Sequence record: HM035025
Strand: one strand, 5' to 3'
DNA: 64,000 bases
Origin: Shigella phage Shfl2
Shown here: positions 18,199 through 23,782 of the stretch, in pieces
Layout of the letters: every line of letters starts with the position of its first letter
Numbering within the stretch: the first letter of the stretch is position 1
The notes under the pieces: model-generated
What the model saw: only the letters and a program-made list of their open reading frames with translations
The model's database searches: none
What the model was told of the DNA's origin: nothing
Made by a program: the position numbers and the translations under genes

Positions 18199-20295
18199 TT
18201 ATCCTTGAACGAACTTGTAAGGCATGTTTGCAATATCTATGCAAGACGCAATAATTCCAAGAGATGATTCTACTTTTTGTTTAACATTTGATGAAACAAA
18301 TGATGCAAAGTCAACTCTGTCTTCTATTTCAATATCACCTGTCATTGCAACTACTTCACCAGTTTCCATTAGACGGTCACCGTCATAAATTACCGATTCG
18401 GTGAGTTCTTCGGTGGTCATAACTTCAGCTTGAATGAGTTTTGTATTATTAGACGTGGTTCCGTCATTATTAGAAGCATCAGTTATTTTATTAACTTTGA
18501 CCATCAATCCACGTGGTAGAATAACTTCAGCTTCTGTTGCTATTCCGAGACTTCCTGGATATATAACATTAACTTTATGAGCTCCATCAATTGCCCATCC
18601 TATTTGAACTTTAACGTATTCAGGATTTTCTTTATACGCTCTTATTTCGTTTGGATTAATAGTTATTCCTTCTTCATTTTTATCAACTGTCAATTCATTA
18701 CGAGCTTCTGGTTCTAAAAGACCAATACCAGCATGTGTAATTCCAAAACGTCCAAAAATGATAGGAGTTAAAGAAGTAGATACAAAATTTCTGAAATAGA
18801 ACACTTTATTTTTAACTAGTGCTTCGTATATAGGAGCAGTCATGCTTTGAGCACGATAAACTGTAATGCCTTCTGGTATACGGTCACCATTTTCAAAAGC
18901 TGAATCTAAGTTATTTATAGCAGATTCAATTTCTTTTTCACTCATTACATCATATCGTTCTGGATTGTAACGACCCAAAAGAAGATTATTGATGTCAGTA
19001 TATCCTGAACCACAATACTCTCTAATGCCGCGCTTTTGTGATGGAGTATATTTAGAACCATCACGGGCAATAGTAATATCAATCATTGGACCTGCACCAA
19101 TTCCAGAAAAACTATAAATCATTCGTTTGAGGAATTTAGTTTTTGCTGCGTTCCAGGAATTTTTAGTTATTTCTTCCCAGACTTCATCTGGCTGCCCTTT
19201 ACGAGTTTTATTATGTTTATCAAGCCATTTATCTTTGTATTCTTCAAAGAATTTATTAACAGCTGCTGCGTATTTCTCTAAACATTTTATTGAAGTAGTT
19301 GGTTCATTTTTAATCGCATTAAGAATTACATCTTTAATTTTTTCAGAAACTTCATTAACCTCACTTTTTGAAAAGAATTTATAGTCATAATGAAGTTCAT
19401 CTGCAGTTCCTTCAGCAATAATTTTTGCTGCTTTAGTTTTAGAAGCTAATGAATTAATTCCAAGCTTCATTTCTTCTGCTTCGGGAATTAAAGGAGCGGT
19501 AGCAGGTTTATTGAAATTAGCTGCGGTAGATTCATACTTCTGGAATAATTCACTTTCAAATCTAGAAGATTCCAATGATTGACTTTGCGCAATTGCTCTA
19601 CGGGAAATTTTAACTTTAACGATTACAGCTTGGTCAGAACGCTTATCATTTTCTTGCGCAATAGATGCTGCAATTGCCTCATTTTTAGTTACTTGGGCTC
19701 CAGTATCTTTATTGATATAAACATCACCGACTTTCGATTCAACTTTAGTAAAGAGCTCGGTACTAATTTCCGGAACTCCTGGAATGTCTTCTAGTGATAC
19801 ATTTTTGCGATGTATAAGAATATATGCATACTTTTTATCATAATCCCAGAGTTCCTTAAGAAGGACGTATCTGCCACCTGAACGACTACGGATAAGTCTA
19901 TCAGCAATAACTTGAATTTGTCGAGCTTGACCAGCAGTTTTAGACTTAAGAATACGGAGCATACAGGCATCAATTTTATACTGACGCATAGTTTGCATTG
20001 CAACAGTAAAAACTGAATTGATATAATTAATTGGGCTTGGACCAAGACCTTTCAATTTAGCAATTGAACCTTTAGCAGTTAATGTAAAAGGAACAATATG
20101 CATCATTTTATCGCCCATTTTTAAATCGCGATTAGTATCACCTCCAGATGTATAGGTACATAAACGAAAGCCTGGTTGTTCAATTGCGTCATCAACATGA
20201 ACTGAAAAAATTTGTGGTATTTTCTTCTTTGGATTTAAGTTTGTAATCGGAAGAGTAGTATCTTCGTCAAATAATTCTGTAATGAGTTCCATCAT
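18199..20295 (-). CDS. alt: Alt ADP-ribosyltransferase (698 aa), packaged internal head protein
   Basis: N-terminus MMELITELFD; ART motifs VYRAQ, FVSTSL, TEAEVILPRG; adjacent to gene 30 side. Confidence 0.75.
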   Translation of the reverse strand: MMELITELFDEDTTLPITNLNPKKKIPQIFSVHVDDAIEQPGFRLCTYTSGGDTNRDLKMGDKMMHIVPFTLTAKGSIAKLKGLGPSPINYINSVFTVAMQTMRQYKIDACMLRILKSKTAGQARQIQVIADRLIRSRSGGRYVLLKELWDYDKKYAYILIHRKNVSLEDIPGVPEISTELFTKVESKVGDVYINKDTGAQVTKNEAIAASIAQENDKRSDQAVIVKVKISRRAIAQSQSLESSRFESELFQKYESTAANFNKPATAPLIPEAEEMKLGINSLASKTKAAKIIAEGTADELHYDYKFFSKSEVNEVSEKIKDVILNAIKNEPTTSIKCLEKYAAAVNKFFEEYKDKWLDKHNKTRKGQPDEVWEEITKNSWNAAKTKFLKRMIYSFSGIGAGPMIDITIARDGSKYTPSQKRGIREYCGSGYTDINNLLLGRYNPERYDVMSEKEIESAINNLDSAFENGDRIPEGITVYRAQSMTAPIYEALVKNKVFYFRNFVSTSLTPIIFGRFGITHAGIGLLEPEARNELTVDKNEEGITINPNEIRAYKENPEYVKVQIGWAIDGAHKVNVIYPGSLGIATEAEVILPRGLMVKVNKITDASNNDGTTSNNTKLIQAEVMTTEELTESVIYDGDRLMETGEVVAMTGDIEIEDRVDFASFVSSNVKQKVESSLGIIASCIDIANMPYKFVQG

Positions 20296-20346: not shown

Positions 20347-20533
20347 AGTAATCTAGTGGTAAGAGAGTACGATATATTTCAAACTTTGGTCCTTTTTCAT
20401 AGGCATCAAATGTTTCTGTAAATTTATTATAAGCGTATGCATCTACAAATTCGAGAATGACTTGTGATACAGAAGTAGAAACATCTCCACCTTCTTTTTG
20501 AGCAATGACAATTGTTTCTAAGTAAGCTTTCAT
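20345..20533 (-). CDS. Hypothetical 62-aa protein downstream of gene 30
   Basis: ORF start overlaps gene 30 stop. Confidence 0.5.
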   Translation of the reverse strand: MKAYLETIVIAQKEGGDVSTSVSQVILEFVDAYAYNKFTETFDAYEKGPKFEIYRTLLPLDY

Positions 20534-21993
20534 AGACCAGTTACCTCATGAAAATCACCAAATACATCCTCGAATGTATTAGCTTTAGTTTTATCTTCAC
20601 GTAAACGAATCGCAATCGGAAGAAATAATTTAACGTAATCAGTGCGGCCATCAGATTTTAACCAACCGTTGCATTCGCACTCTAGAATTTTTCCAATATA
20701 ATAATTTTGGTTTTCCATAATGCGAGTACGGTCAAGCTCATGTGATTTTACGCCGGCTTTATCTTTTAAGCCTGAACCAGCATTTACTTTAATTTTTCCA
20801 CACTCTGACTCAAGAATAAATCCACCCGCTTTGGTAGGGTCTTTACGGTGAGGATAAATTCCTACAATTTTTAAATCAACATCAATTACTTCTTTAAATT
20901 TATAAAGATTTTTTGAACGAGCATTTTCCCATAATCCATCGATATTTTTGAGAATAATACCTTCAAGACCTTGGTCAATATACTTTTTATAAATTACCTT
21001 AGCTTCATCTAGGTTATTTACTATCTGGTTTTCAATTAAAATTACTTTATCATAACCTGATGTCATTTGTTCTAGTTTAGAAAAACGTACATCATATTTC
21101 AAACGAAATGCAGGAAGACCGTATATTTCTACCAACGGGACATAATCCCAGACCTGAAACTTCATGCATTTGGCTTCTTTTTCGGAAATGGTTCCTTTTA
21201 AGGATTTATTGGCGATTCCATTAGAAGCAGTACGAGATTCCGCTACTTCGGCGAATTCTTTAGCTTTACTAATTTCAGGATAAGCATCAAAAAGAAAATC
21301 TAGGCCTTCTGGTTCCTTTTTAACTTGCTCATGGTATACCAATTCGCCATCAATTAACACACCTTCTGGATGAATCTGACGAGCTTCAGCAGTCATTTTA
21401 ATTAACTCTTCCTTAAGAAGATCTAATCCTAGATATTCATTACCAGCTCGTGATAAAAGACGAACATCATCTAATTCATCACCTCTAACTTCAGCAAAAC
21501 ACCGAGCTCCATCTGCTTTTAACTGCGCAAAGGCTGGAAACTTGATATTCTTATTAATGCCTTTTTCATCATAAGAACTTGCCAGCATTTGAGGTTGTTC
21601 AGGAATTAAACCTGGCCAAACTTTGTTTGCAATAGATACTGAAGCACCGCATTCAAGGTCTCGCATCATCACTCGACGCAAAACTTCAACATCATCTTTT
21701 TTACCGTCAGCAATATATCCAGTCAATTCCTCAATTGCCGCATTTCCAGTCAATTTCCGAGTAGCTAATGTGAATTCAATGAAGTCAAGCATATCGGTAA
21801 GAGTCAACATTCCAAAACTCTGGGTAGCAATACCAGGTTTAGGCCATTTCTTGATATAATACTGTAACCCACGAGAATAAGTCAGACGATATACTCGTTT
21901 AAGCAATTCATTATCTTTATTCTTTTCAAGAATTGCTTGCTTCTGCTTAGTTGAACCAATAGATGCTATTTCATTCAGAATTTTAAGAATCAT
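20530..21993 (-). CDS. 30: ATP-dependent DNA ligase gp30
   Basis: 487 aa; N-terminus MILKILNEIASIGSTKQKQAILEK matches T4 DNA ligase. Confidence 0.95.
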   Translation of the reverse strand: MILKILNEIASIGSTKQKQAILEKNKDNELLKRVYRLTYSRGLQYYIKKWPKPGIATQSFGMLTLTDMLDFIEFTLATRKLTGNAAIEELTGYIADGKKDDVEVLRRVMMRDLECGASVSIANKVWPGLIPEQPQMLASSYDEKGINKNIKFPAFAQLKADGARCFAEVRGDELDDVRLLSRAGNEYLGLDLLKEELIKMTAEARQIHPEGVLIDGELVYHEQVKKEPEGLDFLFDAYPEISKAKEFAEVAESRTASNGIANKSLKGTISEKEAKCMKFQVWDYVPLVEIYGLPAFRLKYDVRFSKLEQMTSGYDKVILIENQIVNNLDEAKVIYKKYIDQGLEGIILKNIDGLWENARSKNLYKFKEVIDVDLKIVGIYPHRKDPTKAGGFILESECGKIKVNAGSGLKDKAGVKSHELDRTRIMENQNYYIGKILECECNGWLKSDGRTDYVKLFLPIAIRLREDKTKANTFEDVFGDFHEVTGL

Positions 21994-22259
21994 TGTTCAT
22001 CCTTTAGAGTTTGGTTTACAGCTCTATTATAAATCAATTCATCATTAAGCTCAGGCAAAGACTTATGATATGTAGTTCTAACTTTATTTCCTTGCATCCA
22101 GTGCTTGACGTAAATGAAACCTTGCTCTACACATTTTTTAAAAATTCGTTCGTCTTTTTGAGCTCGGAATTCTGGATTGCATCTAAAAAATTGATTTACG
22201 TGACCGTAATCACGTGTAGTATTACCTTCATTTTCATAAATAGTGTGAACAACAAACAT
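21990..22259 (-). CDS. Hypothetical 89-aa protein (30.x region)
   Basis: ORF coupled to gene 30 start. Confidence 0.55.
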   Translation of the reverse strand: MFVVHTIYENEGNTTRDYGHVNQFFRCNPEFRAQKDERIFKKCVEQGFIYVKHWMQGNKVRTTYHKSLPELNDELIYNRAVNQTLKDEQ

Positions 22260-23128
22260 TAGAATGCTCCTTGGAAAATATTATCACCACTACCACTAGT
22301 AAGTCTATTAAAATACCCTGCATCACCAGGCTTAGTATAACTCCACGTATGAAATGGATTCATATGATACGGGTGTGTATAATATGGATTATATGGATGT
22401 GTATAATATGGATTATACGGATTAAATCCAGGAGTTCTCCAGGTAGTGTTCCAACGAAAAGAATCGTTTTTAACCATCTTCTCAATTACATCTTTTATAG
22501 CTTTTTCACTATCAAAACTTTCTTTATTTTCCTTCGGTGAAAAAAGCTTATTTTCTACATCATTCCATGTATAAACTCGCTGCGCAGTTTTTGGAATATT
22601 GTCACGCTCTCCTCGAGCCATCCAATAAACAGGAACATTTAATATTTCACTCGCATGATCGCAGTGGTAAGCAAGATCGTCAATGTAACAAATTACGTTA
22701 TATTTCTCTTTTGCCTTTTTGAACAACTCTTCTTTTGAAGAATCATGACCACACATCATTACTTCTGAGAAGGCACCAGGAAAAAGAGCATTCAAATTAA
22801 ATTGACGATTCAACAGAGCGTCAATAGAATCACCCAATGCTGTAACAGCTACAAAATTATAATCTTCTTTTAATTTGTTAATTACACACAGTGCATCTTT
22901 ATATGGAGACAAATAACGAATAAAATCTGATCGATTATATTTTTCAATTAACTTGACACCAAGTTCTTCATCACAATTAAAGAGTTTACCCGGAGAAATA
23001 AATTTCTCATCTTGGATCATTTTTAAAATATGTTCTAACGGAAGATTATATTTCTGAGCAAAATAAGGAAGGCCTGATTGCCAGCTTAAACATACTCCAT
23101 CAATATCAGTCAAAATAGTAGGCTTCAT
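22259..23128 (-). CDS. HAD-superfamily phosphatase-like protein with C-terminal NPYYTHPY repeats
   Basis: 289 aa; N-terminal LTDIDGV (HAD motif I DxDG[TV]); tandem 24-nt coding repeat near C-terminus. Confidence 0.6.
   Translation of the reverse strand: MKPTILTDIDGVCLSWQSGLPYFAQKYNLPLEHILKMIQDEKFISPGKLFNCDEELGVKLIEKYNRSDFIRYLSPYKDALCVINKLKEDYNFVAVTALGDSIDALLNRQFNLNALFPGAFSEVMMCGHDSSKEELFKKAKEKYNVICYIDDLAYHCDHASEILNVPVYWMARGERDNIPKTAQRVYTWNDVENKLFSPKENKESFDSEKAIKDVIEKMVKNDSFRWNTTWRTPGFNPYNPYYTHPYNPYYTHPYHMNPFHTWSYTKPGDAGYFNRLTSGSGDNIFQGAF
22384..22427. repeat. Direct tandem repeat (about 20 nt core, 24-nt period, 2 copies) inside the HAD-like gene
   Basis: TGTGTATAATATGGATTATA occurs twice 24 nt apart; encodes NPYYTHPY x2 on the minus strand. 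Confidence 0.6.
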
Positions 23129-23589
23129 AGAGAGTCTCTTAATAGGTTTAACACATCAATAAATTCAGCTTCGGTTAGTATTGTATCATCTTTTGTTAGA
23201 CCACTAGCCATGCTGTGCTTCAAAACTTTTCCTTTCGAGGCTTGTAATGCATCGCGAAAGCCCTTGTTTTGGAACGCTGCTTCAAAATATGCATTTGTGT
23301 ATAATTCTTTCCACGCCGGGGAGTATCTTGAAAACGGAACTCCAATCCAGAAGAGGGTCCCACGGTCCTGAGCTCTTGCATAAGACCTTCCAGCTTGTTG
23401 GGCGGCAAGCCCGGATAATCCAAATATACGACGTTGTTGTTCAACATTTTTCACCTTGCATCCTTGGAGGAATCCTTCAAGACCTCCAAATTGAATACCA
23501 TCCATGACGAAAGGCCATTGGGCGAAATTGCTTAATGCACATGATGGCCATCTAAAATTGCTTCTAATCTCTAACTCAGACATTTTCAA
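23125..23589 (-). CDS. YbiA/NADAR-family protein (putative ADP-ribose/NAD-derivative N-glycosidase)
   Basis: 154 aa; LSNFAQWPFVMDGIQFGGLEGFLQGCK aligns with E. coli YbiA FSNFAAWPIKVDGKTWPTSEHYFQAQK by eye. Confidence 0.55.
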   Translation of the reverse strand: MKMSELEIRSNFRWPSCALSNFAQWPFVMDGIQFGGLEGFLQGCKVKNVEQQRRIFGLSGLAAQQAGRSYARAQDRGTLFWIGVPFSRYSPAWKELYTNAYFEAAFQNKGFRDALQASKGKVLKHSMASGLTKDDTILTEAEFIDVLNLLRDSL

Positions 23590-23782
23590 TACTTATAATT
23601 TCAACATCAGCCCAATGACCATAGCAAGGAAGACGAAATTCAACTGGCCAGTTAGGGTCCTTTTCTAATATAATAGACTGAACTTGTGGCTCTTCATATT
23701 CATCGGTATACGGACCTTTATACGTTACTTTATATGTGACCTTAATGTACTGAATTCCAAAAATCTTATTAATTATATTCAT
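23576..23782 (-). CDS. Hypothetical 68-aa early protein
   Basis: ORF in 30.x early cluster. Confidence 0.45.
   Translation of the reverse strand: MNIINKIFGIQYIKVTYKVTYKGPYTDEYEEPQVQSIILEKDPNWPVEFRLPCYGHWADVEIISIENV

Follow-up and report, generated by a model that had tools for sequence, protein, structure and literature searches.

The window analysed here, a stretch of 64,000 nucleotides from Shigella phage Shfl2 (HM035025), is 97.5% identical to Tequatrovirus genomes (megablast) and thus comes from a T4-like phage. Upstream of the DNA ligase gene (20530-21993) and of gene 30.1 (DUF3045), two co-directional open reading frames lie on the minus strand, just where an earlier sequence-only reading of this DNA had placed them: one of 289 aa (22259-23128) and one of 154 aa (23125-23589). 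Judged by their sequences, they are T4 genes 30.2 and 30.3, respectively. The surrounding gene order is that of T4 (reference NC_000866; MZ375356, the record of a mutant clone whose 30.2 is truncated, was set aside), and 30.3 sits between 30.4 and 30.2 in both phages. The mechanical reading frame of 30.3 starts with a TTG at 23589, while the T4 reference start is an ATG 6 nt downstream (23583), so that the protein has 152 residues and not 154. The two genes overlap by 4 nt in an ATGA (ctATGAag; 23125..23128, minus strand) that holds the stop of 30.3 and the start of 30.2. The same overlap is found in T4, and the junction has the form of the translational-coupling type. Genes of the 30.x cluster are densely packed and overlap throughout; alt, adfN and other small accessory genes are early-cluster neighbours of 30.2.

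Gene 30.3 (23125..23583, minus strand) almost certainly encodes AdfN, in identity and in function. AdfN, for anti-DarT factor NADAR, is gp30.3 of T4 (Johannesman et al. 2025, PMC11825919). The predicted product is identical to T4 gp30.3 (NP_049816) at 149 of 152 residues (98%) over its full length, and the three substitutions from T4 to Shfl2 (L80I, I104F and I125M), all conservative, appear to be without functional note. Its C-terminal helix is intact and ends in LLRDSL as in T4, with no frameshift of the kind by which RB69 adfN lost this helix (PMC11825919). The protein matches Pfam PF08010 over 138 of 138 model positions (E=1.7e-69, 232.4 bits, cut-off 36). Its AF2 model (pLDDT 84, pTM 0.82) gave three Foldseek matches in the PDB at a probability of at least 0.9, namely YbiA 2b3w (the best, E=9.5e-5) and the NADAR proteins 8bat and 8bau. 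A phmmer search of PDB sequences with the single 30.3 sequence gave noise level only. The family profile returned YbiA 2b3w as the best match in the same database, aligned over SNFAxWP..DG....SEHYFQAxK, and so reproduced the alignment to the YbiA core that had been made by eye. Pfam, Foldseek and profile search agree on a NADAR/YbiA fold, and together with the identity to T4 they indicate a NADAR-fold DNA ADP-ribosylglycohydrolase.

The active site is that expected of the phage clade. The catalytic Glu is encoded at 23476..23478 (E36, followed by G37), the catalytic Lys at 23455..23457 (K43) and the His of the last β-strand at 23215..23217 (H123, in strand 122-125 of the model), all on the minus strand; all three codons were checked, and the residues are invariant in the family alignment (E38 and H125 are E36 and H123 in the numbering of the longer reading frame). 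We take the roles of these residues from earlier work (PMC11825919, PMC11125620, PMC11543638). A His at the last-strand position marks the phage gp30.3 clade, while YbiA carries Glu and DarG1-type NADARs carry Asp there (PMC11125620, PMC11543638). The Shfl2 protein thus combines a PF08010 match, an α+β fold and the E36, K43 and H123 set of gp30.3-clade NADARs. The sequence-only reading had doubted its activity because the canonical Glu-His pair is replaced by Glu-Gly. This worry is unfounded, since T4 AdfN carries the identical E36-G37 and is active both in vitro and in vivo; it is impaired by the mutations E36A and K43A (PMC11825919).

The biology of AdfN is well described. T4 and T2 become sensitive to DarTG1 without adfN, and the purified protein strips ADP-ribose from DNA (PMC11825919), while an independent in vitro report found that gp30.3 acts on guanine-ADPr (PMC11125620). 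In a T4 HIDEN-SEQ transposon screen under DarTG1, 30.3 had a log2FC of −7.25. Given the 98% identity to T4 AdfN, we predict guanine-ADPr removal and DarTG1 resistance for the Shfl2 protein as well, and the suspected role of the NADAR protein in counter-defence, with ADP-ribosylated DNA as its substrate, agrees with what has been published for T4 (PMC11825919, PMC11125620). In Shfl2 infection, the host DarT1 toxin would put ADP-ribose on guanine of phage DNA and AdfN, as an N-glycosidase, would take it off, so that replication could continue in DarTG1-carrying cells. AdfN fails to protect uninfected cells against DarT1, its rescue of T5 and Bas25 is partial, and a potentiator of AdfN encoded by T-even phages has been postulated (PMC11825919).

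The product of gene 30.2 is far less studied than AdfN, and no functional study of it came up when we searched the literature. Residues 1-196 (22541..23128, minus strand), modelled with pLDDT above 90, are predicted to form a HAD-superfamily phosphatase domain, a Rossmannoid core with a C1 helical cap. The four HAD motifs are in place, as checked at the codon level: D8 and D10 in motif I (TDIDGV), T96 in motif II, K132 in motif III and D150-D151 in motif IV. The five charged residues are invariant and T96 nearly so in 37 homologues of 34-94% identity. The second Asp of motif I is a mark of phosphotransferases and not of dehalogenases. Foldseek gave 127 PDB matches at E<=1e-3, with HAD folds throughout among the matches listed; the best target coverage among these was that of the deoxyribonucleotidase-like 3bwv (TMt 0.65-0.70) and of cdN (TMt 0.62-0.66). 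Likewise, the family profile searched against PDB sequences had cdN 2jao as its best match (E=0.013), followed by three more cdN entries at E of about 2, while phmmer with the single sequence returned noise only. The recognition of a HAD motif I at the start of this protein was therefore correct, and both proteins belong to the superfamilies to which they had been allotted.

No curated sequence model matches gp30.2, so its HAD membership rests on fold and motifs. Pfam gave nothing at E<=1 for the full protein or at E<=10 for residues 1-196, there was no match to NCBIfam, to the PADLOC and anti-defence families or to PF06941 (the NT5C family), and the PHROGs hits were to "unknown function" families only. 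From the predicted fold and the invariant motifs, gp30.2 is very probably a catalytically competent, Mg-dependent HAD phosphomonoesterase. That its substrate is an NT5C-like nucleotide is plausible, if somewhat short of probable. Residues 197-289 (22259..22540, minus strand) form a short helix and then a disordered tail rich in Pro, Asn and Tyr (pLDDT 37-67 over most of it), which is variable or missing in homologues. At its C-terminus the tail carries a G-x-EY-x-x-x-PT motif. A 24-bp tandem repeat of 2.3 copies within the tail (22367..22422; TRF score 98, 90% matches) encodes an NPYYTHPY duplication and, relative to T4, a 10-aa insertion; because of this duplication the Shfl2 protein is longer than that of T4 (289 and 278 aa, respectively).

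A lead to the function of gp30.2 comes from bacteria. A large Bacteroidales family (for instance P0135 and P0359) consists of an AdfN-type NADAR fused, from N- to C-terminus, to an NT5C HAD, an order that is also the phage gene order, 30.3 and then 30.2. The fusion N-terminus is a His-type, gp30.3-like NADAR, which hhalign aligns to the 30.3 family with a probability of 100% (E=1.2e-45), and the HAD domain matches PF06941 (E=1.6e-16). The fusion genes adjoin ADP_ribosyl_GH, SIR2 or TIR genes. On the HAD side the likeness to the phage protein is weak: hhalign of the 30.2 HAD with that of the fusion alignment reached a probability of 72% over motifs I-II, comparison of the 30.2 family with single fusions gave 42% for P0135 and nil for P0246, and an HMM of the 30.2 HAD domain found no match among NADAR-family representatives, fusions included. 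Another protein, P0243, carries a different HAD fused to a gp30.3-type NADAR. Among the viral contigs that were scanned, only two full-length fusion loci turned up, so the fusion is essentially bacterial. We did not find a recurrent fusion of an AdfN-type NADAR with an NT5C-type HAD in the searchable literature.

The sequence-only reading had proposed that the two phage genes form one processing module. This holds up in part. The ATGA overlap, the fusion family and the published coupling of ADPr-deconjugating enzymes to phosphatases (PMC9503650) speak for it, while other observations speak against it. Firstly, in the HIDEN-SEQ screen under DarTG1, insertions in 30.2 were neutral (log2FC −0.12, p=0.61, 71 TA sites). 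Secondly, a 30.3 homologue adjoins 30.2, upstream on the same strand, in only 37 of the 78 phage loci with a 30.2 homologue, and in the other 41 none lies within 6 kb. To these come the dispensability of 30.2 on K-12, the wide separation of the genes in phage PEi20 and the weak likeness of the phage HAD domain to that of the fusions. Co-occurrence in genomes is uninformative here, because nearly all T4-like phages have both genes (1509 and 1437 records, with the same genus profile). The link of 30.2 to AdfN is thus suggestive but unproven, and we consider a functional coupling of the two proteins rather unlikely.

The explanation that we lean towards, by a little, takes 30.3 as adfN and 30.2 as a HAD phosphomonoesterase accessory to it. 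Linked to AdfN but dispensable, gp30.2 would hydrolyse a nucleotide-like 5'-phosphomonoester and serve in clean-up or in sanitising the pool. Products formed from released ADP-ribose, ADP-ribosylated nucleotides or other aberrant nucleotides are candidate substrates. The de-ADP-ribosylation reaction itself would not require it. Because ADP-ribose has no phosphomonoester, gp30.2 could take over the product of AdfN only if another enzyme, for example a Nudix hydrolase, acted in between.

Alternatively, the adjacency could be inherited T4 synteny and gp30.2 an independent nucleotide enzyme, for instance a 5'-(deoxy)nucleotidase for trimming or sanitising the dNMP pool, with no tie to AdfN or ADP-ribose. 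We give this reading a substantial, if minor, chance. The quasi-core status of both genes in T4-like phages fits it, as do their separation in more than half of the loci (they are about 50 kb apart in phage PEi20), the neutrality of 30.2 under DarTG1 and the deoxyribonucleotidases that are the closest solved relatives of gp30.2 among the matches listed. Moreover, genes overlap throughout the crowded 30.x cluster, so that the overlap of 30.3 with 30.2 is not special. What argues against independence is that the same pair of domains, in the same order, is fused in a large bacterial family with NAD/ADPr-conflict neighbourhoods, and that a second HAD joined a gp30.3-type NADAR in P0243. The linkage has also outlasted an inversion of gene order, as 30.2 and 30.3 still adjoin in reversed order in one distant phage. 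Finally, T4 re-uses host nucleotides, and a general dNMP phosphatase would oppose this.

A further-reaching reading is that of a conserved two-step pathway, split between two genes in T4-like phages and fused in Bacteroidales, in which the NT5C-like HAD would dephosphorylate the ADPr-derived or ADP-ribosylated nucleotide left by the AdfN-type N-glycosidase. We regard this as unlikely. If true, the second step could render de-ADP-ribosylation irreversible or prevent modified nucleotides from entering the pool of phage DNA precursors. In that event gp30.2 would be of importance against defences, ADP-ribosylating or NAD-based, or in conditions that lie outside the DarTG1 screen.

Still less probable is that gp30.2 acts independently of AdfN against another defence system, as a phosphatase destroying a phosphorylated nucleotide or NAD-derived signal or toxin. 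Its place in the early cluster beside alt, adfN and the small accessory genes would suit such a role, and so would the TIR and SIR2 NADase-type neighbours of the fusion relatives; 30.2 is also non-essential on K-12, as is typical of anti-defence genes. However, the main text of the HIDEN-SEQ paper, in which the string "30.2" does not occur, does not list the gene with the anti-defence genes of T4, the protein lacks a PADLOC or anti-defence family match, and no Thoeris or CBASS signal is known to be a phosphomonoester. That gp30.2 is the T-even potentiator, in an obligate two-enzyme anti-DarTG1 module, is very improbable: the failure of AdfN alone in uninfected cells, its partial effect in T5 and Bas25, the overlapping genes and the fusion family would all fit, but insertions across 30.2 were not depleted under DarTG1 as those in 30.3 were, which largely refutes the proposal and led us to reject it, and neither the AdfN paper (PMC11825919) nor the HIDEN-SEQ paper reports such a role.

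Reversal of host DNA ADP-ribosylation by an orphan phage NADAR is already known, having been published in 2024-2025, and as AdfN biology is in print, Shfl2 adds just one more AdfN orthologue. Gene 30.2 encodes a predicted phosphatase with intact catalytic motifs and is near-universal in T4-like phages and non-essential. The gut Bacteroidales fusion offers a concrete lead to its function and to that of the fusion proteins. If this lead proves true, ADP-ribosylation conflicts would gain a downstream metabolic step; otherwise, 30.2 would be one more accessory nucleotide enzyme.

With the DarG1-type antitoxins (E. coli C7; G. lovleyi, 8bat, the second Foldseek match), AdfN shares the NADAR fold, the guanine-ADPr DNA glycohydrolase activity and the conserved Glu and Lys. 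It differs from them in having a His where they carry Asp in the last strand, in lacking an N-terminal extension (152 aa) and in being an orphan, with 30.4 and 30.2 as neighbours and no cognate DarT; nor can AdfN substitute for DarG1 in uninfected cells. We considered 30.3 as a DarT1-associated DarG1 of the BC4488 type and rejected this assignment, given His123, the missing extension, the absence of an adjoining DarT and the lack of a PADLOC model match. E. coli YbiA, a housekeeping NADAR, has the segment SNFAxWP..DG...E..[FY].Q..K in common with AdfN, whereas overall identity is 18% and YbiA has Glu at the position of His123 and Glu-His in place of Glu-Gly. Proteins of the YbiA type use riboflavin intermediates as substrates and give no protection from DarT1 in vivo (PMC11125620).

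For gp30.2, the NT5C 5'(3')-deoxyribonucleotidases (cdN and mdN; S. epidermidis 3bwv) have the same HAD core and small helical C1 cap, and the motif I context DxDGVLxx[FW]xSGL can be aligned. W16, 8 residues past the nucleophile, stands opposite the Phe of DGVLADF, the aromatic position at which the Phe has a role known from mdN structure papers. Gp30.2 differs from these enzymes by an identity of 15-21%, the missing PF06941 match and the additional disordered tail of about 90 aa. The Bacteroidales fusions differ from the phage pair in being single polypeptides, encoded on chromosomes in TIR, SIR2 or ADP_ribosyl_GH neighbourhoods. A published parallel is that of Iyer, Burroughs, Aravind et al. 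2022 (section 3.8; PMC9503650), who described the coupling of enzymes that deconjugate ADPr with phosphatases, among them a "HAD superfamily 5' nucleotidase", and proposed that these process the released ADPr. Their ARG-centred host systems resemble the phage pair in combining an ADPr-deconjugating enzyme with a phosphatase. However, those systems are bacterial, ARG-based and predicted to counter viral ARTs, whereas in Shfl2 a phage NADAR would counter a host ART.

The gene pair lies in a closely packed run of minus-strand genes at 20.3-26.4 kb of the window. A 1.9-kb query around it matched 652 phage records in all, with 97.5% identity to many Tequatrovirus (T4-like) genomes, and the gene order of the T4 reference NC_000866 (alt, alt.1, 30 (ligase), 30.1, 30.2, 30.3, 30.4 ... 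31, cd) is kept. Therefore, the two ORFs are T4 genes 30.2 (22259-23128, minus strand, 289 aa) and 30.3 (adfN). The latter was called mechanically at 23125-23589 on the same strand from a TTG start; the T4-annotated ATG at 23583 gives 152 aa. Its stop overlaps the 30.2 start in the sequence ATGA, and its ATG overlaps the stop of 30.4 (23576-23782, minus strand) by 8 nt. Within adfN, a 75-aa ATG ORF in another frame (23220-23447, minus strand) agrees, in size and in its place inside the gene, with the predicted ORF 30.3', annotated in NC_000866 as 'internal translation, in a different reading frame, within gene 30.3'. Some public 'T4' records hold disrupted copies, since MZ375356.1, the deposited genome of a T4 mutant ('T4 clone T4_583L'), encodes a gp30.3 with a one-residue deletion and has 30.2 annotated at only 330 nt.

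Gene 30.3 is almost certainly adfN, acting as published for T4. Johannesman et al. (Nat Commun 2025, PMC11825919) gave T4 30.3 this name after its role against DarTG1, a bacterial defence whose DarT1 toxin ADP-ribosylates guanine in phage DNA. T4 and T2 lose their resistance to DarTG1 when adfN is deleted, ectopic adfN expression rescues RB69, and purified AdfN strips ADP-ribose from DarT1-modified DNA, with variants E36A and K43A being impaired (PMC11825919). A second group found that the T4 protein hydrolyses guanine-ADPr in vitro (PMC11125620), and in a T4 transposon screen 30.3 insertions were lost under DarTG1 (log2FC −7.25; HIDEN-SEQ, bioRxiv 10.1101/2025.11.20.689424, Data S6).

The window protein is identical to T4 gp30.3 at 149 of 152 residues and matches Pfam PF08010 (Phage_30_3, E=1.7e-69). 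With its AlphaFold2 model (pLDDT 84, pTM 0.82), Foldseek retrieved exactly three solved structures at a probability of at least 0.9: E. coli YbiA (2b3w), Geobacter lovleyi NADAR (8bat) and Phytophthora NADAR with ADP-ribose (8bau). YbiA was also the top PDB sequence match of the family profile, which aligned to it the same segment that the sequence-only reading had aligned by eye. A profile search over 1.84 billion representative proteins gave 1444 relatives, and the general NADAR model PF08719 also touched 9 of the 49 multidomain ones. E36, K43 and the clade-defining His123 of the last strand are all present in the window protein and invariant across the family. The doubt about activity raised earlier, because the YbiA 'EH' reads 'EG', is unfounded, since the active T4 AdfN carries the identical EG.

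The neighbouring 289-aa ORF had been proposed as a HAD protein from its motif I, and this assignment holds. Gp30.2 matched no Pfam, NCBIfam or PADLOC model, PHROGs places it in a family of unknown function, and a literature search on gp30.2 and gene 30.2 found no paper on its function. Across 37 homologues (34-94% identity), motif I (DxDGV; D8, D10), motif III (K132) and motif IV (D150-D151) have invariant residues, and T96 of motif II is nearly so. The AlphaFold2 model, very confident over residues 1-196 (pLDDT >90), shows a helical cap, inserted past motif I, on a Rossmannoid core. The D+2 aspartate is a sign of phosphotransferase-type HADs, not of dehalogenases, and places gp30.2 among the former. 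Judging from motifs and model, 30.2 very probably encodes an active HAD phosphomonoesterase.

NT5C, the 5'(3')-deoxyribonucleotidases, is probably the nearest subfamily, though the evidence goes no further than suggestive. Mouse cdN (2jao) was the best PDB sequence match of the family profile (E=0.013), aligning DGVLvkWqSGL with DGVLADFESGL, followed by three further cdN entries (E ~2). Foldseek gave cdN entries the top target-normalised TM-scores, and databases already labelled some homologues 'HAD', '5' nucleotidase' or '5'(3')-deoxyribonucleotidase'. On the other side, PF06941 does not match gp30.2 and other C1-capped HADs score as well as cdN against it. The substrate of gp30.2 is probably nucleotide-like, with slightly less than an even chance of its being an NT5C-type one. 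Residues 197-289 form a short helix and a disordered Pro/Asn/Tyr-rich tail (22259-22540, minus strand), where a 24-bp tandem repeat (22367-22422) accounts for a 10-residue insertion against T4. Short-form homologues (~200 aa) lack this tail entirely, and it resembles a tethered short linear motif that would engage a partner. In many long-form homologues the C-terminus is a conserved G-x-EY-[LWY]-x-[NY]-[QR]-PT motif, degenerate in the window protein.

The sequence-only reading suggested that both genes may be one processing module, which the ATGA overlap and bacterial fusions support. Relatives of gp30.3 include proteins in which a gp30.3-type NADAR at the N-terminus is joined to an NT5C HAD at the C-terminus, in the phage gene order. 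A search with one of them gave 2047 matches, and all 120 top clusters, which derive from chromosomal contigs of up to 2.6 Mb in Prevotella, Bacteroidaceae and Prevotellaceae assemblies, held both domains. Their NADAR is of the His type (hhalign probability to the phage family, 100%). The fused NT5C domain aligns weakly with the gp30.2 HAD (hhalign probability 72% over motifs I-II), and the gp30.2 HAD-domain HMM found no match among NADAR-family representatives, fusions included. Four independent fusion contexts were seen among Bacteroidales metagenome and MAG contigs (L079-L089). The gene directly follows an ADP_ribosyl_GH gene with SIR2 and small genes upstream, follows TIR-Sel1 and RyR-domain genes, or lies near TIR_2 and kinase/AAA genes, neighbourhoods that look like NAD/ADP-ribose conflict islands. 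Iyer et al. (2022, PMC9503650) described phosphatases, a HAD 5'-nucleotidase among them, that are coupled to ADPr-deconjugating enzymes, and proposed that these phosphatases process the released ADPr. In P0243, a different HAD (PF00702, E=0.005, subthreshold) is fused to a gp30.3-type NADAR. Other fusion partners (P0243, P0152, P0193, P0230 set) include GDSL lipase/acylhydrolase, BspA-type leucine-rich repeats and ASCH domains.

The fusions make a functional link of 30.2 to AdfN plausible, though less likely than not, and its likeliest form would be an accessory step clearing ADPr-derived or aberrant nucleotide products. As ADP-ribose has no phosphomonoester, a pyrophosphatase would have to act between AdfN and any phosphatase that uses its product. 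The main rival, a realistic minority prospect, takes 30.2 for an enzyme of nucleotide metabolism unrelated to AdfN, with the adjacency inherited as synteny; the fusions in phage gene order speak against this. Both genes are quasi-core in T4-like phages, each in ~1450-1500 records with the same genus profile, and their co-occurrence is therefore uninformative. Of 78 IMG/VR loci holding a 30.2 homologue, 37 have a 30.3 homologue 0-1.7 kb upstream in the same orientation, and the other 41 have none within 6 kb; in PEi20 the genes are ~50 kb apart. However, linkage has outlived rearrangement in a distant viral contig of ~166 kb (L094/L115, 3709-4305 and 4980-5453), where a gp30.2-like HAD gene (E=1.4e-20) and a gp30.3-like NADAR gene share one strand, the former ~700 bp upstream, in the order reverse to T4. 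Gene 30.2 is non-essential on K-12 and clearly not required for DarTG1 resistance, as insertions at 71 TA sites were not depleted (log2FC −0.12, p=0.61; HIDEN-SEQ, bioRxiv 10.1101/2025.11.20.689424, Data S6), which favours the synteny view and counts against the module.

In the same screen (bioRxiv 10.1101/2025.11.20.689424), 30.4 insertions were depleted under DarTG1 (log2FC −1.79, adjusted p=0.014), those in 30.5 also fell (−3.0, not significant) and those in 30.6 did not. The 30.4 depletion is most simply explained by polarity on the overlapping adfN; a role of 30.4 itself under DarTG1 is conceivable. Since 30.2 insertions were neutral, gp30.2 is not, for the conditions of that screen at least, the further T4 factor that Johannesman et al. 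postulated for AdfN (PMC11825919).

In summary, the proposal of a NADAR-like enzyme that serves counter-defence by acting on ADP-ribose-linked substrates was correct and is already published for T4; the new part is the NADAR-NT5C fusion of Bacteroidales, which offers a lead to 30.2 function. The gene for the packaged phage ADP-ribosyltransferase, alt (18199-20295, minus strand; PF03496, E=2.1e-37), is the fourth gene downstream from 30.2, beyond 30.1, ligase and alt.1. Thus, an ADP-ribosyltransferase and a de-ADP-ribosylating enzyme are clustered together, as Iyer et al. already remarked for T4-like phages. The window copy is a 98% orthologue of T4 AdfN with the C-terminal helix intact, whereas RB69 is without this helix.
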